Shown piece after piece: positions 25,149 through 43,581 of a stretch of DNA of 64,000 nucleotides. Below the pieces are notes generated by a model. It was not told the origin of the DNA. It worked only from the letters and a program-made list of their open reading frames with translations, and made no database searches. Source of the DNA: Candidatus Vogelbacteria bacterium (GTDB lineage Bacteria; Patescibacteriota; Minisyncoccia; Phycocordibacterales; XYD1-FULL-46-19); assembly GCA_021414225.1 (NCBI GenBank), contig JAIOOX010000002.1, positions 236,597-300,596 on the forward strand. Direction: 5' to 3'. Position 1 is the first letter of the stretch. Every line of letters starts with the position of its first letter. A program made the position numbers and the translations under genes.

Positions 25149-25172
25149 TGCTATAGACCCCCTCCACTCTGT

Positions 25173-25200: not shown

Positions 25201-25236
25201 TAAGTTTGCCCTAATACCCTTTAGCCCGGGCATTTT

Positions 25237-26136: not shown

Positions 26137-26141
26137 ACCCC

Positions 26142-26747: not shown

Positions 26748-27663
26748 GTTCTTCTTCTTGACGTAATTCTTTACTATATGAACGCAAATCTAGTACACCT
26801 TCTAAGTCCTCAACAATATAATCAGGTAGATACATTCCTAATCTTTTATATTCATTGTCTCCTCGAGCTACCGCTATTGTCTTGACCCCTTCAACTCTCT
26901 TGGCATCTTTAATATCACTCGGCAAATCGCCAATCATTACTGTTTTTTCCCGGGTTTCTCCTTTATCCGCAATAATCTGTATCATTCCCGATTTATCATG
27001 ACAGTCTGCATGTATCTCATCAAAATCTTCAGCAATATTCTCTTTCGCTAAAACCTCTTTAATATACTTCTCCGACCCAGCTGAGATTATGTGGATTTTC
27101 AGATTTGGATTATTCTGTTTCGCTTCTTTAAGTTTATTCAAAACATCCTTAACTTCTGGATACAGAGCAGCTGGAGTATGGTGTTCATTATTTACTTGAG
27201 TTTGAACTTCCCGATAGGTATCCTTAAAGTCTGTTAACTCTTCTGGCGTATTTAACGATATACCAAAACGCTTATAGTAATCTTGGAAAGGAGCTTGATA
27301 AGAGTTGGCGATATCCTCAACGCTCGTTGGTGTTGGTATATTTTTATCTGCTTTCTTGTCCAATGTAAGCTCTAAAGCTCGATAAACTGAATATGTACTG
27401 TCATACAAAACGCCGTCAAAATCAAAAATTATATCATTAAAAAGTGTCGTGATTGATCCCTCACGTTCTTGGTGTTCGGAAAAAGATTCTACAGTATCTC
27501 GATATGTAATAGCGTCCTGATAGTCTAAAGGTTGGGTCACCCCTACTGCTCTTTGTTTATCCATAATTGACAGGAGATACAAAAAGTCTTCACGATCTTT
27601 TCGATCTTCTTCTGTTAATTCTGATTGAATTTCATTATCTAATCTTTCCATTTTGTATATCAA
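26740..27663 (-). CDS. HAD-superfamily hydrolase (phosphatase) with ~100-aa N-terminal extension
   Basis: HAD motif I IIFDFDGVLYDS, motif III K (HIISAGSEK) and motif IV MIGDLPSDIKDA. Confidence 0.7.
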   Translation of the reverse strand: MIYKMERLDNEIQSELTEEDRKDREDFLYLLSIMDKQRAVGVTQPLDYQDAITYRDTVESFSEHQEREGSITTLFNDIIFDFDGVLYDSTYSVYRALELTLDKKADKNIPTPTSVEDIANSYQAPFQDYYKRFGISLNTPEELTDFKDTYREVQTQVNNEHHTPAALYPEVKDVLNKLKEAKQNNPNLKIHIISAGSEKYIKEVLAKENIAEDFDEIHADCHDKSGMIQIIADKGETREKTVMIGDLPSDIKDAKRVEGVKTIAVARGDNEYKRLGMYLPDYIVEDLEGVLDLRSYSKELRQEEEHE

Positions 27664-27718
27664 AATACTACCAGGTTACAGCTAAAAATGACAGTCTGAG
27701 GGCAAGGCTCCCTATATA

Positions 27719-28171
27719 CTATATTTGTATTATATACCAAACCAACAAGGCCAGACCACTCCACCAGCCTAGATCAGAAACCACTAAACCAACCATTATT
27801 TTCATCTGCCAACTGTTGGGTAGTAACTCCGCTGATCTACCCTCTTTTTCTCGTTTTAGCAAAAACGGACTAACTATAAAAGACAAAAGCACTCCATTTA
27901 AAATCAATACCACCGCAATCAAAGCATGCAATTGCGGAATTAGTTCACCATAAGATCCGCGATAAAAAATAAACCCGCCAACCACCGCCAAGAAAATACC
28001 CAACCAAATTAATGGTTTGGTCACTTTATGAGTTCTAGTGGTCGCTTCGGTCCAATAAGTAGACTTTCGGCCCAAAAAACCATGCAAATCGATAACTGTG
28101 ACCGCCCCTAAGCCGATAATAAAACCAGCTAATAATGAAAATAGACCAATAAAATCTAAAAGATTAATCAT
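27719..28171 (-). CDS. hypothetical integral membrane protein
   Basis: A 150-aa ORF with 4 predicted TM helices. Confidence 0.4.
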   Translation of the reverse strand: MINLLDFIGLFSLLAGFIIGLGAVTVIDLHGFLGRKSTYWTEATTRTHKVTKPLIWLGIFLAVVGGFIFYRGSYGELIPQLHALIAVVLILNGVLLSFIVSPFLLKREKEGRSAELLPNSWQMKIMVGLVVSDLGWWSGLALLVWYIIQI

Positions 28172-28327
28172 TATTTAATTATAAAATACTTTAGATTATT
28201 AAAACAGTATTTCCTTGTATACCATGATTTTAGTATCCCTGTCGAGCTCTAATAAAAATCAAAAAACAGGGGCGACAGTCCTGTTTTAAAATGGTAGTAT
28301 TTTTAGATTAAAGGAAATAGTTCTCAA

Positions 28328-29356
28328 ATGATGGCGTTCACAAAAATTAATAAAAACTACTTTCGAATTATTTTTGAAGTCCTTATTTTGTGTGCAGGAA
28401 TCACTTTGGGTTTGATTATTAATAAACCAGACGAACCTCAAACAATAGAAAGTGTTCGGGAAACTTCATCAAGTTACAAGTTTATCAATCCCCTCCTGTT
28501 TGTAAAAGTCCCCGAAGATCCAGCTGACTCTGAGTACTCATCACTTAAAAAAATAATCGGCCAGTACGTAGAAAATGTAATTGATCAAAAAAAGGTTAGT
28601 GAAATGTCAGTATATTACCGCAACCTAAACACAAGCCAATGGATCTCCATCAACCCAGAAGAAACTTTCTACCCAGCCAGCATGCTTAAAGTGGCAACTC
28701 TAATTTCTGTTCTTCGAGTGGCCGAATCAGATCCCCACCTTCTTTCTCGCACCGTTAGCTTAAATGGTGATGATAGTTTCCTTAAGGAAGGTCAAACAAA
28801 GTACCAGTCAGAAAACCCAGTAAAAAGCGGTTATTCATACACCATCAAAGAACTAGTTGACCGCCTCGCAATAGACTCAGACAACGCCGCGGACAATGCT
28901 CTTCAAAACATTGTTGGAGAAAATAAAATTTTAAAGACCTATCATGATCTTAAGCTTCCGGAACCAGGACCACGCTCTCAAGGTAATACCTACACCGCCC
29001 GAGAATATTCCCATCTTTGGAGAGCTCTCTATAACGGCACATACCTGTCACGCACTCTTTCAGAACAAGTTTTAGAGCTTCTTAGCCGAACAAAATTTAC
29101 ACAAGGCCTTGTGGCGGGAGTACCAGCTGACATAGTTGTTTCTCACAAATTTGGTGTACGCACTGTCCTGACTGACAACTCTTCAACTTCTCCTTTATAT
29201 CGAGAGCTCCATGATTGCGGTATCGTCTATAATAAAAATGCACCCTATTTTATTTGCGTTATGACTCGCGGAAATGATTTCGACACACTTGAATCAGTCA
29301 TCAAGGATATTTCTAAAATAACCTGGGATCATATTTCAAATCTTAACTCGCAATAA
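28328..29356 (+). CDS. class A beta-lactamase-like serine hydrolase (membrane-anchored)
   Basis: An N-terminal TM, SxxK (PASMLKVAT), SDN (IDSDNAADN) and a KTG-equivalent (SHKFGVRT). Confidence 0.55.
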   Translation: MMAFTKINKNYFRIIFEVLILCAGITLGLIINKPDEPQTIESVRETSSSYKFINPLLFVKVPEDPADSEYSSLKKIIGQYVENVIDQKKVSEMSVYYRNLNTSQWISINPEETFYPASMLKVATLISVLRVAESDPHLLSRTVSLNGDDSFLKEGQTKYQSENPVKSGYSYTIKELVDRLAIDSDNAADNALQNIVGENKILKTYHDLKLPEPGPRSQGNTYTAREYSHLWRALYNGTYLSRTLSEQVLELLSRTKFTQGLVAGVPADIVVSHKFGVRTVLTDNSSTSPLYRELHDCGIVYNKNAPYFICVMTRGNDFDTLESVIKDISKITWDHISNLNSQ

Positions 29357-29396
29357 AAAACACCAAAAAACATAGTCAATAAAATAGGCGGTCAAT

Positions 29397-30161
29397 TTAT
29401 TTTCTAGGCAAAGGAATAAACATACTCGTCTTTTTTTTGTACTCTACAAACTCAGGATTCTCAGCCATCTTTTTCTCTAACATTGGTATGCCAGAAACTT
29501 TTAAAATCAAGGTAGTAATAGTTAGAGGTCCTATTATAGCAAAAGCACCATTTGGGACAGACAACGCGACCAGCCAAATACCCCACCATTGTACCACTTC
29601 CCCAAAATAATTTGGATGGCGTGTGTAAGCCCATAAACCACCTTGCATTAACTTACCCTTGTTTGCTGGGTTTTTAATAAATCGAACCAACTGAGCATCA
29701 CCTACAACTTCAAAATAAAAACCAAGTAACCAGACCAGCACCCCCAAAAAATCCAACACACCTAGGGTTGGTTCTGAATTTTTATTTATCACCAGCACTG
29801 GTAAAACAATCAAGAATAGTAACAGGCCCTGCAAAAGATAAACCTGTAGAAACGAACGTAGATAAAACCACTGACCCCACTCTTTGCGCCACGCCAAATA
29901 GCGATAATCCTCACTCTTTCCCTTATTGCGAGTGTGGATATGCCAAGCGAGGCGCAACCCCCAAATAGTTACTAAGATATTTATTAGAATCTCTCGCGGT
30001 CCAGAATAATCAACAAGAAAAAATGATATCCAACTTATAAGTACAAAACCTAAGCCCCAAGCCACATCAGCCACATCGTTTCTTTTTTTCACTAAAGAAA
30101 CTACGAACCAAAGGCTCATGTAGACAAACAGGATTAGACCAAGGGTTAAATAATAGTTCAT
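29397..30161 (-). CDS. DUF1295 / steroid 5-alpha-reductase-ICMT-like membrane protein
   Basis: A polytopic protein with C-terminal NPANKGKLMQGGLWAYTRHPNYFGEVVQWWG, typical of the DUF1295/ICMT/PEMT superfamily. Confidence 0.6.
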   Translation of the reverse strand: MNYYLTLGLILFVYMSLWFVVSLVKKRNDVADVAWGLGFVLISWISFFLVDYSGPREILINILVTIWGLRLAWHIHTRNKGKSEDYRYLAWRKEWGQWFYLRSFLQVYLLQGLLLFLIVLPVLVINKNSEPTLGVLDFLGVLVWLLGFYFEVVGDAQLVRFIKNPANKGKLMQGGLWAYTRHPNYFGEVVQWWGIWLVALSVPNGAFAIIGPLTITTLILKVSGIPMLEKKMAENPEFVEYKKKTSMFIPLPRK

Positions 30162-30286
30162 TGTTCAATCTTACTAGGGACCAAAGTAGGCACTAGTTGA
30201 AACCGAGTCTATAGTAATAAACACCGGTAAGGCTATTGCCAGTAGTATACAAAAGCCTAACTGATAATTATGTAATTATAGCACAA

Positions 30287-30874
30287 TCATATTTTCATAC
30301 CCCACGAGTTTGCATTTGGATTTCGTTCTTTACGAGAAAGCAGAAACTGCCACATCGAAAACAGAATGAAAGCAAGCAAGGTCACCATCTTGTAGTTAAC
30401 CCACTGCTCCGTCGTAAAATACCACAACGCCAGCTGATTAGAGAAAGCCAATAGAAAAGCAAACACCATCCATCTTATAGAGACAATCCTCCACCCATTA
30501 TCTGTAATATCGAAGATACTAATAAAAAGTTTTTTCAATATCAGAACCCCTTTAAGATAGTATCCAAGTATAATCAGAAATAATAAACCCCAGAATAATG
30601 TGTCTTTAAAGATCAGATAGGTAGGGTTTGATGAGAAAACAGTCACTCCCCCAAAAATAATAATTAAACCAGATGAAAAAAGAGAGAAAATGGCGATTCT
30701 TTTTTCGACATATGTTGATAAAAGAAAAGCAATCAAAACAACAACTACCAGGGCGATAGTTGCGTTTACAAAATCAACCAAATTAAAAATAATAAAGAAA
30801 AGTACTATTGGTCCAAATTCTATAAATAAATTTAGTGCTAATTTGAGTGAGAAGTTTTTTGTCTTGTTTTCCAT
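30287..30874 (-). CDS. intracellular septation protein A family (YciB/IspZ-like) membrane protein
   Basis: A 195-aa, 5-TM protein whose N-terminal LNLFIEFGPIVLFFIIFNLVDFVNATIALVV and IFGGVTVFSSN blocks resemble YciB. Confidence 0.45.
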   Translation of the reverse strand: MENKTKNFSLKLALNLFIEFGPIVLFFIIFNLVDFVNATIALVVVVLIAFLLSTYVEKRIAIFSLFSSGLIIIFGGVTVFSSNPTYLIFKDTLFWGLLFLIILGYYLKGVLILKKLFISIFDITDNGWRIVSIRWMVFAFLLAFSNQLALWYFTTEQWVNYKMVTLLAFILFSMWQFLLSRKERNPNANSWGMKI

Positions 30875-30898
30875 TTTTTGCTCCAGTGAGTCGTAAAT

Positions 30899-31186
30899 CT
30901 ACTTTTTCTTATCAAACCACTTTTGAGCTTTGGGTTTTCGATGAGGACAGCCGGGCCAGCAACAAGGCCGTCTTTTTCCTCTTCGTAAGTCCTCACTTAG
31001 CCTAGCTAAGTGTTCTGTCCGGGTTGCCTCTTTTTTGACTATTGTTACCCAACAAATCCATTCATTACGAGCCAGTGGTGTTAACCCATTCCACAACTCT
31101 AAAATATCTTTATTTGATTGAAGTACTGCTGTGAGATCTTTTGGAACTCGGTGGATAGTATCAGAGTTTGTCGTCTTTTTGGTCAT
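30899..31186 (-). CDS. YdeI/OmpD-associated family (DUF1801-like) small protein
   Basis: LTPLARNEWICWVTIVKKEATRTEHLARL matches the YdeI_or_OmpD-assoc pattern. It has a Cys-rich basic tail. Confidence 0.45.
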   Translation of the reverse strand: MTKKTTNSDTIHRVPKDLTAVLQSNKDILELWNGLTPLARNEWICWVTIVKKEATRTEHLARLSEDLRRGKRRPCCWPGCPHRKPKAQKWFDKKK

Positions 31187-31301
31187 ACTAGTAAGTGTAA
31201 CAAAACATTACAAACTCATCTATTCTACTTACACCACTCTAAAAAGACAGCTCCCAAGAGCATAATAAAATTAATAACACCGGAATAGTAATTATTATAT
31301 A

Positions 31302-31670
31302 TTACTGTCGTAGAATCTTCTCCATCACTTTTCCTTTAGCCAACTCATCAATCAGCTTATCCAAATATCGAATTTCTCTCATCGTTGGTTCTTTAATCTC
31401 TTCTATTCGCACACCGCAAATCACCCCTTTAACCAAAGTCCGTAAAGGATTGAGTTTTGGTGCCTTGGCAAAGAAAGTTTCAAAATCTGTCCGTTTTTTT
31501 AGCTGTTCCTCTAATCCTTTCTGGCTGTAACCTGTCAGCCAGCAGATGATCTCATCGACTTCTTTTTTAGTCCGACCTTTTTTCTCTGCTTTAGCAACAT
31601 AATGGGGGTAGACACTGACAAAACTGGTTGTATAAATACGGTGTTTTTTGGTGGGAGCTTCTGGTTTCAT
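31302..31670 (-). CDS. DUF2200 family protein
   Basis: [39 protein letters not shown] matches my recollection of DUF2200 proteins (~120 aa). Confidence 0.45.
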
Positions 31671-31758
31671 ATTTATTTTATTTTAACAAAATTACAGATA
31701 GACCCGCATCCAGAACTCTTTTCAGGAAACACAAAAAGTGACAAAAGTGACAGAAATT

Positions 31759-32175
31759 TTATAATCCGAAAAAACCAATAAGAACAGACGCCACCCAACC
31801 GCCTCCAGATAGCATCCCTGATAACAACAATAGTCTCCTCTCCTCCTTAGAAAGCTCTATATATGGAGTGATAGTGGCTTTGCGCATCAGCTGGCTAATA
31901 AAAATACCATTAATTAAGAGCGTAGAAACAAAGGCAAGTTTTGCATAAAATAAAGGCTTGGTAAGGATAACCGCCCACATTGGTACCATTACCGCAACAC
32001 CTGTGATAATTAACAAACTTATTCCTAGCATAACCAACCAATGAGACCATTCTACTTTTTTTCGATCGAGAACTAGTTTGCGTCCAGTAAAATACTGAAA
32101 ACCCATATGATCGGCATATAGAATTACCGGAACCGTGATAATAAGAGAGACTAGATGAAGAAAGCCAAAGTCCAT
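31759..32175 (-). CDS. hypothetical integral membrane protein
   Basis: A 138-aa ORF with 4 TM helices. Confidence 0.4.
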   Translation of the reverse strand: MDFGFLHLVSLIITVPVILYADHMGFQYFTGRKLVLDRKKVEWSHWLVMLGISLLIITGVAVMVPMWAVILTKPLFYAKLAFVSTLLINGIFISQLMRKATITPYIELSKEERRLLLLSGMLSGGGWVASVLIGFFGL

Positions 32176-32183
32176 ATTTTTAT

Positions 32184-32696
32184 TTATTGTAATTTTCCTA
32201 TTTTATAATTTTCTAAAATCGCTTCTGGTTTTGACTCACCCCCATGTTGACCTTCAAATAGAGATGACCCGTCTTTACCACAAATTTTTAGAATCTTACC
32301 TGAACCACCTGGATGCTTGGGAATATAAGCGGTTAGATCGTACACATTTCCAGCAATCACGGACCAGCACGAGTCAGCCGAAGCATGAGCCTCTACTTCT
32401 ACCATAGTATAACCAGAAGCAACCACCGGCGACGCAGGGGTGTCAGTACTAGTATTAACCGGAACGACTAGTGGAGCTGTAACAGAAACAGGGCTAGGCG
32501 CCTTTGAAGGCTCTTTGTCTACAGGTTTTTTCTCCAACACTTTTTCAACAACCATAGTGGTTGGAGTACTAGAAGCTTCCTGTTCTACTACCGGACCATC
32601 AAGCTCCTGCTTAGCTATTGGGGATAAAATAAAATAGGCTCCACCAAAAAAAGCAAAAACTAGCACAACAGTAAAGATGAGTATTTTTGTATTCAT
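32184..32696 (-). CDS. membrane-anchored cytochrome b5-like heme-binding domain protein
   Basis: An N-terminal TM and a P/T/V-rich linker are followed by a C-terminal cyt-b5 signature (...VYDLTAYIPKHPGGSGKILKICGKDGSSLFEG, HPGG motif). Confidence 0.6.
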   Translation of the reverse strand: MNTKILIFTVVLVFAFFGGAYFILSPIAKQELDGPVVEQEASSTPTTMVVEKVLEKKPVDKEPSKAPSPVSVTAPLVVPVNTSTDTPASPVVASGYTMVEVEAHASADSCWSVIAGNVYDLTAYIPKHPGGSGKILKICGKDGSSLFEGQHGGESKPEAILENYKIGKLQ

Positions 32697-32741
32697 ACCT
32701 ACTATTTTATACCTAAATTAATAATATAAAAAGAAGTAGTT

Positions 32742-32772
32742 CAGCCTTTTTACAGGCGCGCTTTTGTGACCC
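32742..32772 (+). repeat. direct repeat DR-A (32 bp, 2 mismatches to DR-B at 36236-36267)
   Basis: CAGCCTTTTTACAGGCGCGCTTTTGTGACCC here versus CAGCCTTTTTAAAGGCGCGCTTTTGTGAGCCC at 36236. They are in the same orientation and bracket a ~3.5-kb segment. Confidence 0.6.
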
Positions 32773-32881
32773 TAATTAGACGGAACTGGGACCAACTTAC
32801 CAGAGAACTGGTTGGGTGGTATGGGTTATTGAGGGAGTTTGGAGGTGTGAAGGATTCTAAATGTAACAGCTTAAGATACCA

Positions 32882-32910
32882 TTGACTAAATAGATATTAT
32901 TGTATATAAT
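32882..32910 (+). promoter_or_regulatory. perfect-consensus sigma70 promoter (TTGACT-17-TATAAT) for GC-rich gene 32900-33286
   Basis: TTGACT at 32882-32887, a 17-nt spacer and TATAAT at 32905-32910. If the TSS is just downstream, translation probably starts at the internal Met (MGTIYCLMNHG) rather than at the ORF-track start. Confidence 0.5.
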
Positions 32911-33286
32911 ACTGGTCAGGATTTTTGGTGATTACGTTACTAACTCCATAACAGAAAGGGACGACATGGGTACCATTTATTGCTTGATGAATCATGGTCC
33001 TGGTTTAACAGACTTGATTCGCCAGATCCTCTTCGATACTGCTCAGGAAATGGTCCGCCGTGACCTGAAACGGAAGCTGGTCAGAAATGACGACTTCGAG
33101 GGGGTGGTTACCACGAAGAAAGACTGGGCCCGAATGGGAGGAGTCAGTGGATACGTCTTCAGCGCCGTCGTTGAATCCGAGGCGGGGGTGAAAAACAACG
33201 TCTCCTACCTGGTACGACCGGCCGATCTCGAAGACCTTGAGGGTGGACGTGTCAGTAGTGTAAATTACCACTCGATGCTTAATTGA
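32900..33286 (+). CDS. hypothetical protein, GC-rich gene
   Basis: The ORF is clearly GC-richer than its flanks (...GTIYCLMNHGPGLTDLIRQILFDTAQEMVRRDLKRKLVRNDDFEGVV...). Its own promoter and terminator bracket it, and the true start is probably the internal ATG near 32966. Confidence 0.4.
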   Translation: MYIILVRIFGDYVTNSITERDDMGTIYCLMNHGPGLTDLIRQILFDTAQEMVRRDLKRKLVRNDDFEGVVTTKKDWARMGGVSGYVFSAVVESEAGVKNNVSYLVRPADLEDLEGGRVSSVNYHSMLN

Positions 33287-33321
33287 ACTTTACAATCTGT
33301 GACCCCCGCCCCTCCCGAGAA

Positions 33322-33358
33322 CCGCCCCGCGCAATTCCAGGTGGGGCGGTTTTTCTTT
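33322..33358 (+). terminator. intrinsic terminator
   Basis: CCGCCCC-gcgcaattccaggt-GGGGCGG followed by TTTTTCTTTT. Confidence 0.65.
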
Positions 33359-33511
33359 TACTTTTTTATTATCAAACCTTTTTAGCTTCAGGTTTTTAAT
33401 AGATATTTTGACGAGTGAACCTTTTCGAGATAGAACCCAGCCGATGTGTTACCAAATAAGGTCATTTCGACTATAAATCTAGAGATCCCAATGAGCCTTT
33501 TAGAGCGTTAG

Positions 33512-33811
33512 TTATTCAAGTAGCCTTTTAAAGACTTCTTCATATCCTGTATAGCCACGATTACCACGGTTCCCAGGATTTCCTGGTGAACCGGGACTTC
33601 CTGGGTTCCCTGGATTTCCAATATTCCCATAATTTCCGAGCCTCTTATCTAAAACCATATCTCCTTCGAGTTCACCAACGTATTGACCAGTTAATTTGTG
33701 CACATGGGTACCATTAATTTGACCCACAGGATTACCCTTCATGTCGTAAATGAATTTATCCCTGTAGAAACCTATAGCACTCCCCGATTGTTCATATAAA
33801 TAATTTGTCAT
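33512..33811 (-). CDS. small hypothetical protein with short collagen-like G-N/S-P-G repeat tail
   Basis: The ORF (ORF-track 33512-33856) was trimmed to the Met 7 nt downstream of the RloC-like stop. It contains GNPGNPGSPGSPGNPGNRGNRG. Confidence 0.3.
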   Translation of the reverse strand: MTNYLYEQSGSAIGFYRDKFIYDMKGNPVGQINGTHVHKLTGQYVGELEGDMVLDKRLGNYGNIGNPGNPGSPGSPGNPGNRGNRGYTGYEEVFKRLLE

Positions 33812-33818
33812 AGATAGA

Positions 33819-36029
33819 TTAAATATTATAGGTTGCATAATGGTCTTTATCAACACTTTTTATCACTTCAAAGAAATTTTTAATTCTTTGTGAACTTGCC
33901 TGCAAGACAGTTACATCATATTTATCAAACCCTAAAAATTCATGTGAACCATGATTTATAAATCGATACATCACTTTCTCTTCTTGAGCGACTTCTTGTT
34001 CTATAACATCCTTGTCTGCGGGATTTGAGTTGTCTAGTCTATATTTTTTGTATTTGGCGTACAGCTGAGCAAGTTTGCTTTTCAGGTCGCCGTGTCCATA
34101 CTTAAAGTGTAGAAATGTTTCCAAAGCTCGTCTGAGTAAGTTTGCGGCCAAAATAGCATCGTCTAAGTCTATACTGTCCTTCACTTCATTCAATTTTGTT
34201 ATTGAATATAAATAGTCAGATCTATATTTTTTAAGGTTGTCATCCAACTCTTGAATTGTTGAGCCGGTATTCTTTAGTGAGATTTGAAAAAATTTAACTA
34301 AATCGTCTCTAATTTTTCCGTCTTTTCTGTAACTTTGGAGAAGGTGGCCAAAAATATCTAAATTGTGAGAAAGAATGAAATATTGTCTGTCAGGACGACT
34401 TTCAATTTCTCCCGATAGTATTGCAAACACCTGAAAAAGTGAGTCAGAATCAAGACTTGAAACAGGATCATCAATGACTATAACGGAATTCTTATCAATC
34501 TGATTATCTTCATCATTGATACTTAAAAGAAAATATGCCAAAGCTAAGAAGTTTCTCTCTCCCTCACTCAAGGAACTGAGTTCACACTTAGCACCATCAC
34601 GTTTGAGCACATAACCAACTTCTCCATCTGAATCATCCAAAGATATTTCTTTATATGGGAAAGTCGATTTGAGTAGTCTGTTTATTCTATCTGCAGGAAT
34701 TTGAACATTTTTAGCCACCTTTTTAAGCTCTTTTAAATCTTCTTCAATTAGTTTTATATCTCCTTCGTGCTTTGACTTTTCTGCTTGACAGTCTTCATAC
34801 TCCTTCTTCTTTGAGGTGTATTTTATATATGCCCTTGCGACATAATCTTTTTCGATACTCCAAGCAATTGAACCAACGTCGAAAGTTTCTTCTTCGACAA
34901 AAAGATCATCAAAGGTTATTTTTTCGACTATTTTTTTTATGTCTTTTCTCTTTTTTTCCACTCTAGATCGTAATGTGAGAAATAGAGTCTCTAAGGTTTC
35001 CTTTTTAGTAACGTAAAAACTCTCGCATATTCCAATCTCACTTATTGCGCTCTCAGTTTTTGCACTTATTCCATCCAAGGCGTTACTGAGTTCCATTACA
35101 TCTTCAGAAAAATGTTTCAATAACTCGTCTTCGTTGGTAATTTCTGACTCACAAAAAAGACAGTGGTTTAACTTTTCGGTTTCGTTTAGTTTATGAATAC
35201 CAATTCCTTCCCTTACCCATTTTTCTTCTAGACTTCCGTCAGAATATTTTGCTAGTCTTTTTGATTCTTTGTAAACAGGAATAAAAGTGAGGTATTTATT
35301 AATTTTATCTGTTTTTTCAACCACCCAATCATTCCATTTTTTCAAAGTCTTATACTCTCTCTCCTTTACAGATAGATTAGATAAAGTAGATATTCTTTGT
35401 TTTAGTTCAGATTCCTCACTTATAAAGTCATCAACTTGTTTTCCTTCGATGATTGCTTTTGATAGCCACTCTATTCTTTTTTCAAAAGAAGATTTGATAT
35501 AAGAATTATATAAACCATTACTTTCTACCACAGGATCTTTCCTTAAATGTCCAATTCCACTTATTTTTCGTATGTTTTCAGAAACTTCTTTTGATATGTC
35601 ATCGTACTCGTTCTTGCAGGCCTTTAGTTTACTTAGCTTTTCCTTTGCACCTTCAAGTTCCTTTTCTTTTTTTGAAAAATCAACACCAGCGGAACCAATT
35701 GCTACAACATATGGGAGATGGGTTTGGTCAATTGCCTCTTTTATATAGTCTTCATTAAAAACGCGAATCTTATCAGTGAAACCTGAAAGTTCACTGTGTT
35801 TCTTAGCGCCGGTATCAAATTGAGTAGTAAATTGTGCACCGTTAATTTTATCTTCAGAATTAATTATCCCTTTTTCATATGACCTAATTATTCTAGAAAC
35901 TATTGTTTTTCCAGAACCATTCCATCCCAAAATAATATTTACCTTGTCGTGAAAATCTCCAACGGTCGCATCCCAGATGAAGTTCTTAAATGCACCACAT
36001 TTGATATTTTGGATTTTCTTTATTTTCAC
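33819..36029 (-). CDS. RloC/PrrC-like ABC-type ATPase (AAA_13-like) with coiled-coil CxxC hook and C-terminal candidate anticodon-nuclease motif
   Basis: An N-terminal P-loop (ILGWNGSGKTIVSRI) is followed by a long coiled coil containing HCLFCESE (CxxC, Rad50/RloC-like zinc hook). The ABC signature LSEGERNFLALAYFL, Walker B/D-loop VIVIDDPVSSLDSDS and an H-loop (FILSHN) follow. The C-terminal ~170 aa contains LLRRALETFLHFKYGH...FINHGSHEF, an R-x3-E...H arrangement like the PrrC/RloC ACNase triad. Confidence 0.6.
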   Translation of the reverse strand: MKIKKIQNIKCGAFKNFIWDATVGDFHDKVNIILGWNGSGKTIVSRIIRSYEKGIINSEDKINGAQFTTQFDTGAKKHSELSGFTDKIRVFNEDYIKEAIDQTHLPYVVAIGSAGVDFSKKEKELEGAKEKLSKLKACKNEYDDISKEVSENIRKISGIGHLRKDPVVESNGLYNSYIKSSFEKRIEWLSKAIIEGKQVDDFISEESELKQRISTLSNLSVKEREYKTLKKWNDWVVEKTDKINKYLTFIPVYKESKRLAKYSDGSLEEKWVREGIGIHKLNETEKLNHCLFCESEITNEDELLKHFSEDVMELSNALDGISAKTESAISEIGICESFYVTKKETLETLFLTLRSRVEKKRKDIKKIVEKITFDDLFVEEETFDVGSIAWSIEKDYVARAYIKYTSKKKEYEDCQAEKSKHEGDIKLIEEDLKELKKVAKNVQIPADRINRLLKSTFPYKEISLDDSDGEVGYVLKRDGAKCELSSLSEGERNFLALAYFLLSINDEDNQIDKNSVIVIDDPVSSLDSDSLFQVFAILSGEIESRPDRQYFILSHNLDIFGHLLQSYRKDGKIRDDLVKFFQISLKNTGSTIQELDDNLKKYRSDYLYSITKLNEVKDSIDLDDAILAANLLRRALETFLHFKYGHGDLKSKLAQLYAKYKKYRLDNSNPADKDVIEQEVAQEEKVMYRFINHGSHEFLGFDKYDVTVLQASSQRIKNFFEVIKSVDKDHYATYNI

Positions 36030-36235
36030 ATTTATATTCTAACAAAAATAACCTCAAATGAAGTATATTTTGCATACTTCTCGTGCTAGCTGTTGTTGGT
36101 GATTTTCTATTTGTTGTGGTCCACAATAATTTGTTTTTCGTCAAAAACAAATTTTCCAGACCCGGCCTCGACTTTTTTGTTGCTACAAAAACATGTCTCC
36201 GGCTTCACAAAAGCGAAAAAGCCTGAGGCAGTCCA

Positions 36236-36267
36236 GCCTTTTTAAAGGCGCGCTTTTGTGAGCCCAT
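36236..36267 (+). repeat. direct repeat DR-B (partner of DR-A); embedded in a larger inverted repeat CACAAAAGCG...CGCTTTTGTG
   Basis: See DR-A. The 10-bp arms CACAAAAGCG (36209-36218) and CGCTTTTGTG (36252-36261) flank it. Confidence 0.6.
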
Positions 36268-36443
36268 TGTACTTTGAATGGAACACCATGAAAAGCACCG
36301 TCCTTAGATGGGAGGAGGTTTTCGGAAGCTTGGGTAATTTGCGAGAATTAGTCCTTACTTAGAGGGATTTTCAAGCTTTCGGAATCATTTGAACTTACCC
36401 AAGTGGTATTAGAACAAGAAAGCACGTATCTATGCTTGATTAC

Positions 36444-36464
36444 GTATACCCCCTAGGGGTATAC
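36444..36464 (+). promoter_or_regulatory. candidate CsoR operator (GC-rich palindrome) overlapping csoR promoter
   Basis: GTATACCCCCTAGGGGTATAC is a perfect 21-bp palindrome 9 nt upstream of the csoR ATG. It resembles known CsoR operators (ATACCC-N-GGGGTAT type). Confidence 0.5.
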
Positions 36465-36472
36465 TAGTAGAT

Positions 36473-36745
36473 ATGAGACAAGATATTAAAACAAAAGCCG
36501 CCCGCCGCTTAAAAATCGTTGAGGGTCAGGTGCGGGGACTACAGAAAATGGTTGAGGAGGAAAAATATTGTATAGACATCATCACCCAAGCTTCTGCTAT
36601 TAAGGAAGCATTGACTGGTGTGGAAGATTTAATACTTGAAAATCACCTCACTACCCACGTTATACATCAAATAAAACACGGTAAGGAGCAACAGGCCGCA
36701 ACCGAAATACTTAAAGTTTATAAGCTAGCCCAACGCAAAAAATAA
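36473..36745 (+). CDS. csoR: CsoR/RcnR-family metal-sensing transcriptional repressor
   Basis: A DUF156 four-helix fold (RLKIVEGQVRGLQKMVEEEKYCIDIITQASAIKEAL) with conserved Cys/His ligand positions (C-x...H-x3-C pattern). Confidence 0.8.
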   Translation: MRQDIKTKAARRLKIVEGQVRGLQKMVEEEKYCIDIITQASAIKEALTGVEDLILENHLTTHVIHQIKHGKEQQAATEILKVYKLAQRKK

Positions 36746-36748
36746 TTT

Positions 36749-37372
36749 ATGTATACATGCCCCATGCACCCAGAAGTAGTGAGCGATAAACCGGGCAAAT
36801 GCCCGAAGTGTCATATGGACCTCGTACCGCAAAACTCAACGCCAAAAGTCCACCATATGACCGACGACAAAGGCCTTGGAAATCTCACGTGGAAAAGCTA
36901 CATGCCCCTTATTGCTATTGGAGCCGTTCTTCTCCTTGCATCTGTTACCATTTCAATTCACGATGCTAATTTAGGTGTCTTTGCAATTGAAAAGAGCATG
37001 TCCTATTTCATGATTGGGTTCTTCCTTACGTTTGCCACTTTCAAACTGATGGACCTACCCGGTTTTGCACACGGGTATCAAACCTATGACCTCTTGGCGA
37101 CAAAAGCGCCGTGGTATGGATATGTCTATCCGTTTATAGAATTATTCTTTGGGCTAGCAATGATACTTATACCGTTCTCTCGTGAACTCTTAGTCGCAGA
37201 GTTCGTTGTAATGGCATTTAGTGGTCTTGGGGTAGCAATCAAAATTGCTAAGAAAGAGGAGTTTATGTGTGCGTGTCTCGGTACGTTCCTAAAAGTTCCT
37301 CTCACGAAAGTAACTTTGATTGAAGATTTTGGAATGGCGGCACTTGCAGGGATAATGTTTTTCTTAATGTAG
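36749..37372 (+). CDS. membrane protein with N-terminal heavy-metal-binding motif (MYTCPMHPE...CPKCHMDL), putative Cu-handling protein
   Basis: The YTCPMHPEV...GKCPKCHM motif is typical of the Cu/Ag-efflux-associated heavy-metal-binding domain. Four TM helices follow (DoxX/MauE-like). It sits directly downstream of csoR. Confidence 0.5.
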   Translation: MYTCPMHPEVVSDKPGKCPKCHMDLVPQNSTPKVHHMTDDKGLGNLTWKSYMPLIAIGAVLLLASVTISIHDANLGVFAIEKSMSYFMIGFFLTFATFKLMDLPGFAHGYQTYDLLATKAPWYGYVYPFIELFFGLAMILIPFSRELLVAEFVVMAFSGLGVAIKIAKKEEFMCACLGTFLKVPLTKVTLIEDFGMAALAGIMFFLM

Positions 37373-37373
37373 T

Positions 37374-37745
37374 ATGCAATTTCTAAAACAAACAATTTTA
37401 ACTCTCGCACTCGTTGCCTTTGTAGGAATGGCGGGTTTTGGAATGTTTGCAATGACCGGACATCACCACGAGCCGGGGTGTCCATTCATGCCGGGAGAGC
37501 AAGCAATATGCGAGATGAATATCTTTGACCATATTTCCGCTTGGCAAAGTGCGTTTACAGGAGTTTTGCCGTCCATTTTTATACTTGTTCTTATAGCCGC
37601 TTTATTCTTTGTACATTGGTTTAACTACGACAAACCGCCCGACTTGCGAGGCAAGGTTGGTCCTAGGAGTAGTCCCGGTTTAAACAGACCTAATCTATAC
37701 CAAGAACTATTCTCTAGCGGCATACTTAACCCAAAAGCACCCTAG
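37374..37745 (+). CDS. small membrane protein with His/Cys/Met-rich segment
   Basis: GHHHEPGCPFMPGEQAICEM lies between two TM helices, inside the copper cluster. Confidence 0.35.
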   Translation: MQFLKQTILTLALVAFVGMAGFGMFAMTGHHHEPGCPFMPGEQAICEMNIFDHISAWQSAFTGVLPSIFILVLIAALFFVHWFNYDKPPDLRGKVGPRSSPGLNRPNLYQELFSSGILNPKAP

Positions 37746-37783
37746 CCACTTGTAATCTCTCTTATTAATTAATCTTAAAATAC

Positions 37784-38203
37784 ATGCAAAAAAATACAGG
37801 AATTATTATCGCAATTGTTACTCTCATTGTAGGTCTCGGACTTGGTTATGTCGTAGGTACAAACAAAGCTCCTACGGCCCCACAAAGCGCCGCAGGGGGT
37901 CATATGATGCCTGACGGCTCAATGATGGGTAATGGCGGTGGCTCTATGAGCATGGCCGAAATGATGGCTTCAATGAACGCTGAACTGAACGGTAAGACAG
38001 GCGACGAGTTCGATAAGGCATTTATCAGTGAAATGATAATGCACCATCAGGGGGCGGTAGAGATGGCGCAATTGGCTTTGAAGAACGCTAAGCACGCCGA
38101 GATTAAAACTCTGGCAAACGCAATTATCTCTGCACAAAATAAAGAAATTGCAGATATGAAAGCGTGGCAAGAAGCATGGTATGGGAGCGAGACCAACAAC
38201 TAA
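37784..38203 (+). CDS. DUF305 family protein with Met-rich N-terminal segment (copper-resistance associated)
   Basis: DUF305 blocks (FDKAFISEMIMHHQGAVEMAQLAL; KTLANAIISAQNKEIADMKAWQ) follow an MMPDGSMMGNGGGSMSMAEMMASM Met-rich motif of the kind seen in Cu(I)-binding periplasmic proteins. Confidence 0.7.
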   Translation: MQKNTGIIIAIVTLIVGLGLGYVVGTNKAPTAPQSAAGGHMMPDGSMMGNGGGSMSMAEMMASMNAELNGKTGDEFDKAFISEMIMHHQGAVEMAQLALKNAKHAEIKTLANAIISAQNKEIADMKAWQEAWYGSETNN

Positions 38204-38276
38204 TTAAAAGTAGATAAGGTAAAAATGGCCCTGCAAATTGCGGGGTCATTTTGTTTATTGGGCTAATCCGAGAACA

Positions 38277-39272
38277 CTAAAGCGATGGGTGTTGCCCGTC
38301 TGGCATATCTAATCCCATTTCTCGGACGTAATCGCGGAGTTTTCGATTTTTATGAACGATATCTTTTTCAAACTTATCAATTTTTTCTATCAAGCGATTA
38401 TCAGTTGCCGGATTGGCAATGGCCCTTGCTTCAACAAGAAGTTTATTTGCTCGACGAAAACGCTGGAATGAGGGCATTTTTGTCGCAAGGTTGTAAATAG
38501 TATGTGCTTGTTCCGATGGCTTATTCGCAAGTTTGAACTCTACAATTGCTTTCTCAAAATACTGAATACATTTGTCGCGAGACAGGTTAATTTTTTTGCG
38601 CTCTTCGCGACGATAAAGATAAAGGTCTAGGTTCCACCGACGAACGAAATGTGTATTTGCAATCTTGGCTTTAAATTTTCCGCCTTTCTGAAAATCGAGT
38701 TTATCAGTCAGATATTTGTGGCTGTATACATCTCCAATCGTGGAGAATGCATGACCTCGAAACTCGTGGTCCAGTCCCTGTTCTGCTCTTTCAATAACAA
38801 GTGCAAGGGTCGTGTCTGCCTCACGTTCAAGCTCTTTACGCTTTTCGCCTAACGCTTCATATTCTTTCTTATCTTTCTCGGTCGAAAAACCTATCCATCC
38901 AAAGACCTCTGAAGCAAGCATCAAGTTTTTTTGCCTGTAGATTGCATCAGATAATTTAAGTCCAAGAAAGAAACATTTTTTACCCAACAGGTAGCTTTGT
39001 ACACTTTCGTTTCCCGTCCGCTTAGCAATTTCTATCCCCTCATTTGCGACAGCGAGTAGTTTGTCTCCCTCGGTGACATGGTCTAAAACTCCTAGCATTG
39101 CAAGGAGTACATTAATCCGAACAGAGGGGTCTTGCGTTGTTATTGTCTCAAGCAAGCTTCTCGCTTCATCATATTCGCCGAGGTTATACAGCTCGACTGC
39201 TTTTTTCAGTTTATTTTGGTCTGGCATAGTATTCACGTTGTCGAAATCGCGCGATACGAGCTGGAATTTCAT
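38277..39272 (-). CDS. hypothetical protein with N-terminal TPR-like helical repeat; overlaps upstream DUF4238 gene by 62 nt
   Basis: A 331-aa ORF (...AVELYNLGEYDEARSLLETIT...) with no recognisable catalytic motif. It is co-directional with and overlaps the DUF4238 gene in a different frame. Confidence 0.4.
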   Translation of the reverse strand: MKFQLVSRDFDNVNTMPDQNKLKKAVELYNLGEYDEARSLLETITTQDPSVRINVLLAMLGVLDHVTEGDKLLAVANEGIEIAKRTGNESVQSYLLGKKCFFLGLKLSDAIYRQKNLMLASEVFGWIGFSTEKDKKEYEALGEKRKELEREADTTLALVIERAEQGLDHEFRGHAFSTIGDVYSHKYLTDKLDFQKGGKFKAKIANTHFVRRWNLDLYLYRREERKKINLSRDKCIQYFEKAIVEFKLANKPSEQAHTIYNLATKMPSFQRFRRANKLLVEARAIANPATDNRLIEKIDKFEKDIVHKNRKLRDYVREMGLDMPDGQHPSL

Positions 39273-40128
39273 GCCTTAAAAAGCGTAGTAGGAAAACGGG
39301 GTCAAGTGGCAATCTTCGGAACCAGCGCCTCTTCAACTTTGGCGAGTTTGCAATGAAGTATTGATGTGAGTATCCGTAGACCATTCGATTGTCATTGTGC
39401 ACCATATCTTCGGTAGCAAACAAATATCCACGAACATTGTTTATCCAACTGAAACAAACAGAGATTTCAGGTGAGAGTGGCATTCGCACTTCGACCCCTC
39501 TCTGTCCAAACGCAGGAGGGAAAAAACGTTGAAATTGCATCTGACTGTTGAATAGGTATGCGGGTGCATCTGACGTAATGAAAGACACGCGTTTATTTTT
39601 CGTGCAGAGAAATGCAACATTCATTTTAGATAGGATTTCCGCAATTTTAGGGGCCATTTCTATTACGCTCATTTTGTGAGCATCTTTCTTTGCTTCCTCC
39701 CATTCCTTAGAAGATTTTGCCGGTGCTCCGTGCACTGTTTCGAGTTGCTTTGCCCAACCAATCATTTGGTCCATTTGGTTCTCAACGTGTTCTTTCTGCT
39801 TCAAGGTTCGCTGGAGCATGGCGGCGACAAACGCACAAAAAATAGCGTGCTCGTAAGGTGTAAGCGGGAGCTTGTGCTTAATCTTTTTTTCAAATATGTC
39901 GGCATACTCACTTTCAAGTTGCGCCAACGACTTTTCAATAGAATAGTCACCTTGGAATGTATAAACATCTGTTTCCGTGAGCACGCTACGGATATTCTGC
40001 CTTTTGCCTCGCTTACTTTTACGCTCAAAAATCCAAACACACGGCCCGAAGTTGCTCGGTACTTTTGGGTCTACAAACTGCTTTAAATAACATTTCGGAA
40101 TGGTGTGCTGGTTCTTCGGGTTTGACAT
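39211..40128 (-). CDS. DUF4238 family protein (Rst_DUF4238-like anti-phage candidate)
   Basis: The N-terminal hallmark H-T-I-P-x-x-Y-L-x-x-F (NQHTIPKCYLKQF) and an internal FITSDAP block are characteristic of DUF4238. Confidence 0.6.
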   Translation of the reverse strand: MSNPKNQHTIPKCYLKQFVDPKVPSNFGPCVWIFERKSKRGKRQNIRSVLTETDVYTFQGDYSIEKSLAQLESEYADIFEKKIKHKLPLTPYEHAIFCAFVAAMLQRTLKQKEHVENQMDQMIGWAKQLETVHGAPAKSSKEWEEAKKDAHKMSVIEMAPKIAEILSKMNVAFLCTKNKRVSFITSDAPAYLFNSQMQFQRFFPPAFGQRGVEVRMPLSPEISVCFSWINNVRGYLFATEDMVHNDNRMVYGYSHQYFIANSPKLKRRWFRRLPLDPVFLLRFLRHEIPARIARFRQREYYARPK

Positions 40129-40183
40129 TGTCTCTATATCATAGGGTATTTGCAGAATAATAGATATTTGGCGTTAATTGGAG

Positions 40184-40320
40184 TTAGGCATTTTCAAAAA
40201 ACCTATATCTTTCAATGTATTTTCGACTTTTACGATTTTCTAAAGCCAATAAATCAAGGGTTTTGCATAAATAAAGAGATTTTAAGGTTAGGCATTTTTA
40301 CAAAACCTATATTCTGCAAG
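40184..40320. repeat. two ~30-bp imperfect direct repeats (40184-40216 and 40288-40320) in divergent intergenic region
   Basis: TTAGGCATTTTCAAAAAACCTATATCTTTCAATG versus TTAGGCATTTTTACAAAACCTATATTCTGCAAGC, 104 bp apart. They may be regulator binding sites or iterons. Confidence 0.4.
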
Positions 40321-40371
40321 CTCTTTTAGGAAAGATGCTTTTTCTAACCGTAAGAAAATGGTATAGTAATC

Positions 40372-40496
40372 ATGCGTCCCACAGTAGTCGAATAATGTAC
40401 GAGGTCTTTTGCTTCCTATGGAAGCCCAATTGCGGGCTGAAAGGGGGGCATTCGACCGCCACAATTGGTTGCCTCGTGCAATTCAGTACTGTGGGA
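40372..40496 (+). ncRNA. candidate structured non-coding RNA of unknown class (multi-helix, closed by a 12-bp long-range helix)
   Basis: P1 is CGTCCCACAGTA (40372-40383) paired with TACTGTGGGACG (40485-40496). P2 is GTACGAGG paired with CCTCGTGC, including a G-U that favours the plus strand. P3 is the hairpin GCTTCC-tat-GGAAGC. P4 is CCAATTG(CGG)...(CCG)CCACAATTGG enclosing a purine-rich CUGAAAGGGGGG loop. Only short ORFs without coding character overlap it. Confidence 0.35.
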
Positions 40497-40576
40497 CGCC
40501 GGCTCCGAGTGTCTCCCTTTTTGTATTGTCGAACAGAAAAGGGGTTGGGCTGATTACCCACCTAGTTTTATAAATT

Positions 40577-40831
40577 ATGCTCGTAGTAATTATTGTTCTG
40601 CTCTTACTACTTCTTGCAATCGCCGCCCCTGTGCAAATAATGGCGAACAAAAAGAAGTTGAAGCAAATGGACACGCTAATTGAAGCGTTCGAGGCACAAA
40701 GCTTCGAGACGCCGGAGGCAAAAGAAAATGCCAAGCGTGTGTTAAAGAAAAAGCTCGTTGGATTGAAAGCAAAGATACTTGCTGACAAGAAATCAACGGA
40801 AATCGCGGACGACAAACTCAATATTCTTTAA
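40577..40831 (+). CDS. small hypothetical membrane-anchored Lys-rich protein
   Basis: An 84-aa ORF with an N-terminal TM (LVVIIVLLLLLLAIAA) and a K/E-rich tail. Confidence 0.3.
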   Translation: MLVVIIVLLLLLLAIAAPVQIMANKKKLKQMDTLIEAFEAQSFETPEAKENAKRVLKKKLVGLKAKILADKKSTEIADDKLNIL

Positions 40832-40856
40832 GCTTAGAATAAGCTAGAATTAGAGA

Positions 40857-41525
40857 ATGATAGCGTCCCATAGTCAAAACAAGACCCTTAATCGTCTTGC
40901 AAAAATCTTAGAGTTTGTAGAGACGCAATACAGGTCACACGCGGACAAGGAAACATTCTTTTTGGGTGCCAGTGAGATTTTCCGCTTCGACCCACTTCTA
41001 AGCGATATGGATTTGCTAAAAATGGGTTTTGAGAAAATCACTGACGACACAGGGGGAAATGTAAAGATTGAGTTTCGGCAAGGATTACCCGAACGAAACA
41101 CAGCTGACCCGACCCATGTTAGTTACGAACTTTATGTTTGGTTCTATGTTGAGGACCAAAATAAGTTCAGGGACTATCAAAGCTCTGTGAGGTCAAGAAT
41201 TGAGAGAGAAACCAAGGCGGTCCAATTCATTCTCGACAGTCAGGGCTTCTTCTACCCAGAGGGTACGGGGCCAGAGAATAGGCACTCACTCAAAAGAAAT
41301 AGCAACCGTTACCAGTTGCTTTACTTGTTAGCTAAGGAAAACAGATACATTGCAACAAAGGAACTTGCGGAAAAGCTGAATGTCTCGGCTCCAATAGTGA
41401 GAAAAAGGATAGGTGAGATTAGAAACATTATCGCCAAAAAGTGGGAGTTGTCGCGTGAAGCATTGTTTGAAAGTGACAATGCTTCCGGTTACCGAGTAAC
41501 GAATGTCACTCTCCAAGAAAGCTAA
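40857..41525 (+). CDS. hypothetical protein with C-terminal winged-helix/HTH DNA-binding domain
   Basis: The C-terminus NRYIATKELAEKLNVSAPIVRKRIGEIRNII is HTH-like (DeoR/MarR-type recognition helix). The N-terminal domain is unknown. It lies upstream of the recombinase. Confidence 0.4.
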   Translation: MIASHSQNKTLNRLAKILEFVETQYRSHADKETFFLGASEIFRFDPLLSDMDLLKMGFEKITDDTGGNVKIEFRQGLPERNTADPTHVSYELYVWFYVEDQNKFRDYQSSVRSRIERETKAVQFILDSQGFFYPEGTGPENRHSLKRNSNRYQLLYLLAKENRYIATKELAEKLNVSAPIVRKRIGEIRNIIAKKWELSREALFESDNASGYRVTNVTLQES

Positions 41526-41668
41526 AGAGGTATACCTCACCGAAACTACTACGGCTATAGCTGTTAACAACTTCGCAGAGAACTAAGCAAACAAGGGATT
41601 TTAGGTTTTCTCGTTCCGTACGCACGAGGGATTGCGGAGGTACGGGGTGGCTTCAATAGAGTTAGGGC

Positions 41669-41866
41669 ATGGTATCGTTGCCCGATTTTAAAAAAGCACT
41701 TGGACCTCTTGGCGACAAACTCACAGAAAAAGAGATTGAGCGTCTCAATATTCTTTCAGCTCAACTTGCTGGTTCTCTTTTCAATATGTGGAGCCGAAAA
41801 CTAAAAGAGAGTAGGCAGAATGAGAAACCAATAATTTATGGAAACGACCAAATACGCAATAATTGA
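41669..41866 (+). CDS. small hypothetical protein overlapping recombinase start (possible directionality factor)
   Basis: A 65-aa ORF ending 29 nt inside the recombinase ORF. It has no known domain. Confidence 0.25.
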   Translation: MVSLPDFKKALGPLGDKLTEKEIERLNILSAQLAGSLFNMWSRKLKESRQNEKPIIYGNDQIRNN

Positions 41867-43547: not shown

Positions 43548-43581
43548 GAAGGCTCCGTCCTAACCGTTAGACGATAGGGCC
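43507..43581 (-). tRNA. tRNA-Glu (anticodon CUC)
   Basis: Reverse complement: GGCCCTA-TC-GTCT-AACGGTTA-GGAC-G-GAGCC-TTCTCAA-GGCTT-AAAT-CGGGG-TTCGATT-CCCCG-TAGGGTC-A-CCA. It folds into a cloverleaf with a 7-bp acceptor stem, GTTCGATTC T-loop, anticodon CTC and encoded CCA. Confidence 0.8.

Follow-up and report, generated by a model that had tools for sequence, protein, structure and literature searches.

Tandem modules and tRNA-Glu-derived direct repeats at a probable integration hotspot of a Candidatus Vogelbacteria genome

The 64,000-nt stretch of DNA analysed here (the window), from a Candidatus Vogelbacteria metagenome-assembled genome, contains two near-identical direct repeats that bracket a 3.5-kb segment with a RloC-like ATPase gene. 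The comparisons below indicate that the locus is probably a tRNA-Glu integration hotspot with tandem accretion of modules, in which the repeats are relics of the attachment (att) region and copies of the tRNA-Glu 3′ flank. In particular, the bracketed segment is a mosaic, a close relative carries an empty site, the ATPase and recombinase modules are linked to tRNA-Glu in other genomes, and the right copy of the repeat has the identity of a tRNA-Glu trailer. Mobile elements and the traffic of defence genes are poorly charted in candidate-phyla-radiation bacteria; at this tRNA-Glu-anchored hotspot, a RloC-like defence ATPase, a copper-resistance cluster and small orphan genes would have been stacked by serine-recombinase-type integration, and the same hotspot and its junction motifs recur in distant Patescibacteria. 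Structures of this kind are known, and the locus adds an example from a phylum that has been little studied; the hairpin and element that follow tRNA-Glu are possibly new.

The repeats and the tRNA-Glu trailer

The features that carry the argument are the following; loci in other genomes are given L numbers.

32733-32772, minus strand: left repeat, TAGGGTCAC + AAAAGCGCGCCTGTAAAAAGGCTGAAC, a truncated tRNA-Glu 3′ end and the first ~35-45 nt of the trailer hairpin
36225-36264, minus strand: right repeat, the 5′ arm and loop-proximal half of the complete trailer hairpin
36201-36264, minus strand: complete trailer hairpin (-31 kcal/mol, z = -3.9)
36112-36208, minus strand: conserved structured element of ~100 nt, after the trailer hairpin (nhmmer E=1e-19)
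43507-43581, minus strand: tRNA-Glu(CTC), the anchor of the array, ending in ...GGGTCACCA

The 31-mer CAGCCTTTTTACAGGCGCGCTTTTGTGACCC lies at 32742-32772 (left copy) and recurs on the same strand at 36234-36264 (right copy) with two mismatches. A sequence-only reading of the window had recognised the two direct repeats, their common orientation and the left coordinates; its identity of 30/32 over 32 nt is corrected to 29/31 over 31 nt, and its right copy (36236-36267) had been set 2-3 nt too high. Ungapped likeness reaches 40 nt (35/40, 32733-32772 vs 36225-36264), or ~50 nt once a gap of ~5 nt is allowed, and the flanks outside these ~40-50 nt are dissimilar between the copies. Both the 31-mer and its 15-mer core occur twice in the 64-kb window. 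Chance similarity of the two copies can be dismissed: 0 of 100 dinucleotide shuffles gave a match, and the repeat is kept in a close relative (L013), at the place of the left copy and with 36/40 identical positions.

Read on the minus strand, both repeats would start with the last bases of the tRNA (..GGGTCAC) and continue into the 5′ arm and loop of the trailer hairpin. The right copy belongs to a complete structure: in plus-strand reading it is the 3′ half of the 36201-36264 hairpin, whose 5′ arm opens with the last bases of the tRNA itself, and whose outer stem, CACAAAAGCG (36206-36215) paired with CGCTTTTGTG (36251-36260), is the 10-bp-arm inverted repeat in which the sequence-only reading had rightly seen this copy nested. 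AAAAAGGCTG and CAGGCTTTTT form the inner stem. When the hairpin is aligned with 12 native loci, 12/17 of its pairs show compensatory changes; in the element, 9/18 predicted pairs are compensatory.

The same arrangement is found next to intact tRNA genes. Species-representative genomes were scanned for the tRNA-Glu(CTC) anticodon arm, yielding 120 Patescibacteria loci, and the element begins 41-43 nt past the tRNA in 8 of them. Further, a metagenome scan with the query CCNGTAGGGTCACAAAAGCGCG, which joins the tRNA end to the repeat start, returned 10 loci, all 10 of which have an intact tRNA-Glu (UUC or CUC), GGGTCAC followed directly by AAAAGCGCG, the inner stem-loop, CGCTTTTGTGAAG and then the element, collinear with window 36265-36112. 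Overall, the hairpin stands directly after an intact tRNA-Glu and before the element in at least 18 other Patescibacteria loci, and all recognisable homologues of the repeat or hairpin lie directly 3′ of a tRNA-Glu gene. These comparisons identify the right copy as a tRNA-Glu trailer, with the predicted hairpin and element both complete. Spacings of 41-50 nt between tRNA-Glu (CUC or UUC) and the element are seen in L032, L065, L092, L093, L107, L110, L127, L133 and L138-L147.

A generic dispersed intergenic repeat, of the kind of repetitive extragenic palindromic (REP) sequences, miniature inverted-repeat transposable elements (MITEs) or terminators, could occur twice by happenstance, and the right copy is indeed a strong hairpin and, on the plus strand, a weakly scoring terminator-like site. 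This explanation is nevertheless highly improbable: there are only two copies in the 64 kb, the 24-nt core has 0 exact matches in three public collections (genome, metagenome and viral), the homologous hairpins are tied to the position immediately 3′ of tRNA-Glu, and the left copy has no second arm. The REP-like element at many unrelated sites, which the sequence-only reading had named as the outcome that would speak against an insertion, was not what the searches returned.

The left copy has no partner arm for the hairpin and no structure when the window sequence is folded, and on its far side it is joined to the promoter of a cytochrome-b5 gene. Between the window and L013, 4/40 of its positions differ, compared with 6% in the surrounding block. 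The comparison gives no hint that selection acts on the left copy, and because it is changing at least as fast as its surroundings, it looks like a relic, truncated and apparently non-functional. Moreover, the bases GCCTKT and GGCTG are derived and common to both window copies, where all other trailers have GAATTC and GACTG; because of these shared bases, the left and right copies are each other's closest relatives.

Rfam holds no family for the hairpin or the element, in the window or in the native loci, at the gathering cut-off or at E<=10, and the two together are a concrete new target for RNA-family curation. Somewhat doubtfully, they might constitute an undescribed structured RNA or a non-coding, non-autonomous mobile insert that moves with the tRNA-Glu 3′ end; either way, the site would be the recombination hotspot of a family of tRNA-Glu-specific serine recombinases whose ORF the tRNA completes, and the 31-mers would be scars of that system. 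Non-coding inserts of 150-190 nt, which would be of this kind, lie within the first ~235 nt after tRNA-Glu in L019, L031, L137, L068, L018, L027, L125, L136 and L066; each ends in GTGAC, and an 18-20-nt copy of the tRNA 3′ end comes next as a direct repeat. In L148 (535-837), a 52-nt 5′ tRNA duplicate is followed by a 175-nt insert and then by the full tRNA. Such an arrangement has the look of a miniature integrated element or of the scar of an island.

An empty site in close relatives

Two relatives from two samples, L013 and L014, lack most of the DNA between the left repeat and the tRNA gene. The features concerned are these.

33419-43512, no strand: segment absent from L013/L014, a composite island of 10,094 bp
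32184-32696, minus strand: cytochrome-b5 domain gene (Pfam Cyt-b5 E=3e-19), the left flank, whose promoter region abuts the left repeat
36473-38203, plus strand: csoR - HMBD/MauE - 123 aa - DUF305 copper cluster, within the inserted 10.1 kb

At the empty site, window position 33418 is joined to 43513 and one repeat is present, at the left position. In particular, L013 404-1157 corresponds to window 32676-33422 at 94% identity, covering the cytochrome-b5 promoter and first seven codons, one repeat, and a GC-rich open reading frame (ORF) with its terminator, and L013 1150-1206 corresponds to window 43509-43565, in the tRNA-Glu(CTC) gene. The breakpoints of the 10,094-bp segment fall in a common GTGA (TCAC on the minus strand); the exact crossover point is one that we infer. 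The missing DNA comprises a beta-flower gene, the ATPase, the right repeat with its hairpin and element, the csoR cluster, a DUF4238 gene, a helix-turn-helix (HTH) protein and a serine recombinase. Because the empty site carries the left repeat alone, the right repeat is inside inserted DNA and the left repeat is older than the insertion. The locus thereby cautions that a direct-repeat pair need not mark the ends of one cassette.

The relative age of the copies bears on a local duplication, in which replication slippage, template switching or gene conversion placed ~40-50 nt of the trailer hairpin beside the cytochrome-b5 promoter, with independent arrival of the intervening modules. The sharp confinement of the likeness to ~40-50 nt between dissimilar flanks agrees with such an event, as do the derived bases common to the right and left copies. 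However, the left copy begins exactly at the tRNA 3′ end, TAGGGTCAC(AA), at a module boundary like the other TCAC junctions, and relative to L013 it is older than the right copy's arrival; we regard a local duplication as unlikely. In L013 (22-424), an unrelated 124-aa gene takes the place of the cytochrome-b5 gene past codon 7, and therefore a breakpoint also lies on the left side of the repeat. In L003, the nearest cytochrome-b5 relative, DNA homology and synteny at this gene reach 32735 and stop there, and L003 has no repeat. Across the cytochrome-b5 homologue contexts (63-48% identity) only the pair of cytochrome b5 and a 138-aa gene is kept, and these contexts are too distant to yield an empty site; exact-protein look-ups of cytochrome b5 and CsoR gave no match beyond the source contig. 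Left of cytochrome b5, ~7 kb (24663-31759) are missing from the otherwise syntenic L003 and form a second variable region, with beta-lactamase-like, DUF1295, IspA, OmdA and DUF2200 genes among its contents.

The copper cluster is absent at the L013 empty site and is not the native right flank. The sequence-only reading had expected an empty site in which cytochrome b5, a single repeat and csoR are adjacent; none was found, and the L013/L014 site is without the right repeat and without csoR. A perfect palindrome, TATACCCCCTAGGGGTATA (36443-36461), stands 12 nt upstream of csoR and is probably the CsoR operator; the repeat itself was considered for this role and rejected, given that the separate palindrome adjoins csoR.

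Separate distributions of the bracketed genes

The three genes between the repeats, and the junction at which the ATPase module starts, are listed here.

32882-33356, plus strand: GC-rich ORF module (promoter 32882-32910, 106-aa ORF 32966-33286, terminator ~33322-33356)
33512-33838, minus strand: beta-flower fold protein of 108 aa with a Gly-Asn-Pro-rich tail (Pfam PF21784 E=1e-13)
33819-36029, minus strand: RloC-like AAA_13 ABC ATPase of 736 aa (Pfam AAA_13 E=5e-78; PADLOC PDC-S06 E=5e-82)
36078-36103, minus strand: junction J2, start of the ATPase module, ATCACCA (the last 7 nt of tRNA-Glu) + ACAACA + GCTAGCACGAGAAG

The sequence-only reading described these genes well (a GC-rich ORF with promoter and terminator, a small collagen-like ORF and a RloC-like ATPase), but its 3.5-kb single cargo does not hold: only the ATPase and 74 nt upstream are common to the nearest loci, and the GC-rich ORF moves separately. 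The GC-rich ORF has a near-consensus promoter (TTGACT-17-TATAAT) and a GC-rich terminator, and its block shares 94% DNA identity with L013/L014. Its protein homologues are 96% identical in L013 and L014 (short contigs, two samples) and 52% identical in unrelated neighbourhoods, without an ATPase or beta-flower neighbour; a reading of this ORF as a non-coding RNA was rejected on account of the 52%-identical protein homologues in unrelated contexts. The beta-flower gene, whose fold is described in PMC10584680, is absent beside the ATPase homologues in the other genomes examined.

The ATPase carries Walker A, a CLFC hook, LSEGE, Walker B, R633-x3-E637 and H693/696, and PDC-S06 is a PADLOC candidate defence system. 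Its closest homologue (87% amino acid identity) is found on four contigs, L006-L009, where the DNA homology of 84% spans window 33815-36103 only, that is, the gene and the 74 nt upstream; nothing else in 18 kb of L006-L009 matches the window, the tRNA excepted. On these contigs an intact tRNA-Glu(CTC) immediately precedes the ATPase, and the last 7-8 nt of the tRNA, which correspond to ATCACCAA at window 36096-36103 on the minus strand, are part of the homology. Likewise, L148 has a 76% homologue directly 3′ of tRNA-Glu(TTC), with the same junction CCA-ATTCGTGCTAGCACGAGAAG. The window ATPase is now 7.4 kb from the tRNA-Glu gene. Between the window and L006-L009, the ATPase DNA is 84% identical and the tRNA-Glu genes 79%; the ATPase DNA is therefore closer than the tRNA genes, which indicates recent horizontal transfer.

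The remaining ATPase homologues occur in differing contexts, without the beta-flower gene and without the GC-rich ORF, and the three bracketed genes are never together elsewhere among the homologue contexts examined. These distributions mark the 3.5-kb bracket as a mosaic and not as one unit. No terminal inverted or flanking repeats surround the ATPase homologues in L008 and L010. In L011, a block of HTH, DpnII restriction-modification and ATPase genes lies between inverted repeats of ~200 nt (4850-5118 and 10543-10740, 89-99% identity), and therefore the same ATPase family also moves in a transposon-like vehicle.

A single 3.5-kb cassette of GC-rich ORF, beta-flower gene and ATPase, inserted site-specifically with the repeats as attL/attR of a ~31-40-bp core, is difficult to reconcile with the mosaic and appears quite improbable. 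It would account for two direct repeats, 29/31 identical, that enclose accessory genes, and the repeats do stem from a tRNA-flank att region. However, the segment consists of at least three independently distributed pieces and also holds the hairpin and element, which are of a conserved chromosomal type; no recombinase lies inside the bracket (32773-36233); and in L013 the left junction is present although ATPase, beta-flower gene and right repeat are all missing. Further, the native trailer continues past the right copy and not past the left, whereas a simple insertion into the trailer would give the opposite. The site-specific insertion proposed by the sequence-only reading is thus retained in one respect, as the repeats are copies of the tRNA-Glu 3′ end and trailer, the integration sequence of this lineage, and given up in another, as they do not delimit one cassette.

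Junctions and recombinase at the tRNA-Glu anchor

Two further features stand at the tRNA-Glu gene and at the right repeat.

41838-43547, plus strand: serine recombinase of 569 aa (Pfam Resolvase 25.8 bits, cut-off 23.3)
36262-36315, minus strand: tentative decayed tRNA-Glu-like stretch, AGGACGGTGCTTTTCATGG..GTTCCATTC..GGGCTCAC, just upstream of the right repeat

The TCAC of the tRNA end is common to all five module boundaries. At the tRNA-Glu gene itself, TCAC is followed by CA in the window, vs GGGTCAC followed by TCG in L013; the remnants of a tRNA end at other boundaries are TAGGGTCAC (9 nt) at the left repeat and ATCACCA at J2. Upstream of the right repeat, 36262-36315 gives a collinear local alignment to tRNA-Glu (shuffle p ~0.03-0.06) that ranks 7th of 492 TCAC sites, which is no more than suggestive of a decayed tRNA-Glu. 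Upstream of three TCAC junctions, tRNA-likeness ranks 7, 13 and 17 of the 492 (p 0.03-0.2 each). A search for partial tRNA-Glu copies in the window gave 9-nt matches only, which are at chance level apart from their positions.

Similar junctions adjoin tRNA-Glu elsewhere. The motif CCA + GCTAGCACGAG follows tRNA-Glu in 7 further genomes, with varied and unannotated cargo, and in L074 a clear large serine recombinase lies just past such a tRNA-Glu...CCA + GCTAGCACGAG junction. An assignment of the cargo downstream of GCTAGCACGAG to HEPN nucleases was dropped, as Pfam scans annotated only one large serine recombinase. In addition, a palindromic motif, (C)GTGCTAGCACG-AGAAG, is present directly after tRNA-Glu...CCA in distant genomes with differing downstream genes (window 36078-36096 on the minus strand, L008 7934-7953, L148 838-857, L020, L036, L064, L074, L076, L095 and L135), and this recurrence may point to a conserved island end or a recombinase site.

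The window's recombinase is of a size that fits a large serine recombinase; its Recombinase domain scores 16.5 bits, below the Pfam cut-off for that domain, and the zinc ribbon is undetected. Its last ~13 codons run antisense within tRNA-Glu, ending ~40 nt inside the gene. Homologues with 39-46% identity end 37 nt inside tRNA-Glu(CTC) in L024, L060 and L129, with other cargo in L024 and L060, so that the overlap of recombinase ORF and tRNA-Glu is found in four independent genomes, the window's included. Since the ORF ends inside the tRNA, integration or excision would alter the C-terminus of the recombinase.

Proposed assembly of the array

The 3.5-kb spacing of the repeats would result from independent modules stacked in tandem downstream of tRNA-Glu(CTC). 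Read on the minus strand, the array would start at tRNA-Glu(CTC) with its ...TCAC, followed by the serine-recombinase element with the csoR copper genes; the decayed tRNA-like ..GGGCTCAC with hairpin and element (right repeat); the tRNA-end remnant ..ATCACCA with the RloC-like ATPase and the beta-flower gene; ..GGTTCAC with the GC-rich ORF module; ..TAGGGTCAC with the truncated hairpin (left repeat); and, last, the promoter and gene of cytochrome b5. The state of L013 (tRNA, ORF module, left relic) would most simply predate the arrival of the 10.1-kb block. This block may have arrived as a composite, by accretion-mobilisation, and have brought along another trailer copy that stemmed from a related tRNA-Glu locus; a second trailer carried in by the block would explain the two near-identical trailers in direct orientation. 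The insertions would have been performed by the serine recombinase, or by relatives that acted earlier.

Several points weigh against this proposal. The order and mechanism of the events were not observed and are reconstructed from the arrangement. The L013 and L014 contigs are just 1.1-1.2 kb long, and L013 could in principle be a deletion derivative and not the pre-insertion state; the tRNA 3′ end of L013 is intact, however, which speaks against the decayed copy at 33419-33440 having served for a recent excision. A left-type trailer and cytochrome b5 were not seen together immediately behind tRNA-Glu in any locus. Long exact direct repeats of the tRNA 3′ end are missing beside every module (the exact identity is 4-11 nt), and the longer junction flanks are 55-65% tRNA-like, with marginal significance singly. 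Moreover, the Pfam matching of the recombinase is weak, and the copies of the repeat were counted in the 64-kb window of a 409-kb source contig.

Comparison with known systems

Direct repeats termed attL and attR flank integrative elements, prophages, and integrative and conjugative elements at tRNA genes. As in these systems, direct repeats from a tRNA 3′ region are found here at element boundaries and a relative has an empty site; unlike attL/attR, the repeats are not the ends of a single element, and the DNA missing from the empty site includes one of them. The hairpin further resembles REP sequences and bacterial interspersed mosaic elements in being an imperfect, intergenic palindrome; in contrast to them, it is not dispersed but tied to the position after tRNA-Glu, where its covariation indicates a hairpin conserved across the lineage.

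The motif layout of the window ATPase agrees with that of RloC (PMC2610378). With the RloC/PrrC anticodon nucleases of that study it shares the ABC ATPase head, a single CxxC in a long insert and the C-terminal R-x3-E...H, and like them it behaves as a single-gene module. The spacing from E to H is 56-59 residues here vs 41 in Geobacillus RloC, and, unlike RloC/PrrC, the window gene and its 87% (L006-L009) and 76% (L148) homologues are at a tRNA-Glu integration site. On the strength of its motifs, the protein is RloC-like and a putative anticodon nuclease.

Among described systems, the serine-recombinase ssrA islands of Dehalococcoides (PMC3146451) are the closest analogue. Those islands are ssrA-specific and stand in tandem, with a large serine recombinase at the end of the RNA gene; their arrays include recombinase-less modules that are mobilisable in cis, and growth by accretion has been proposed for them (PMC3146451). 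The present locus matches them in the stacking of modules downstream of one small-RNA gene, in the strain-specific accessory genes within the array and in a serine recombinase of ~540-570 aa by the end of the RNA gene, on the reverse strand; some modules have no recombinase, and neighbours may move jointly by accretion. Further, as expected of tandem islands, the empty site is at the tRNA 3′ end, the recombinase is at the tRNA-proximal end, and modules are found alone by tRNA-Glu elsewhere (the ATPase in L006-L009 and L148, the GC-rich ORF in L013). The differences are that the target is tRNA-Glu in a Patescibacteria genome, that TCAC-anchored, decayed tRNA-like flanks take the place of clean 20-bp repeats of the RNA-gene 3′ end, and that no second small recombinase or integration module is seen in the window. 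Unlike in Dehalococcoides, the longest repeat is made of trailer and not of RNA-gene sequence, and the recombinase ORF runs into the tRNA.

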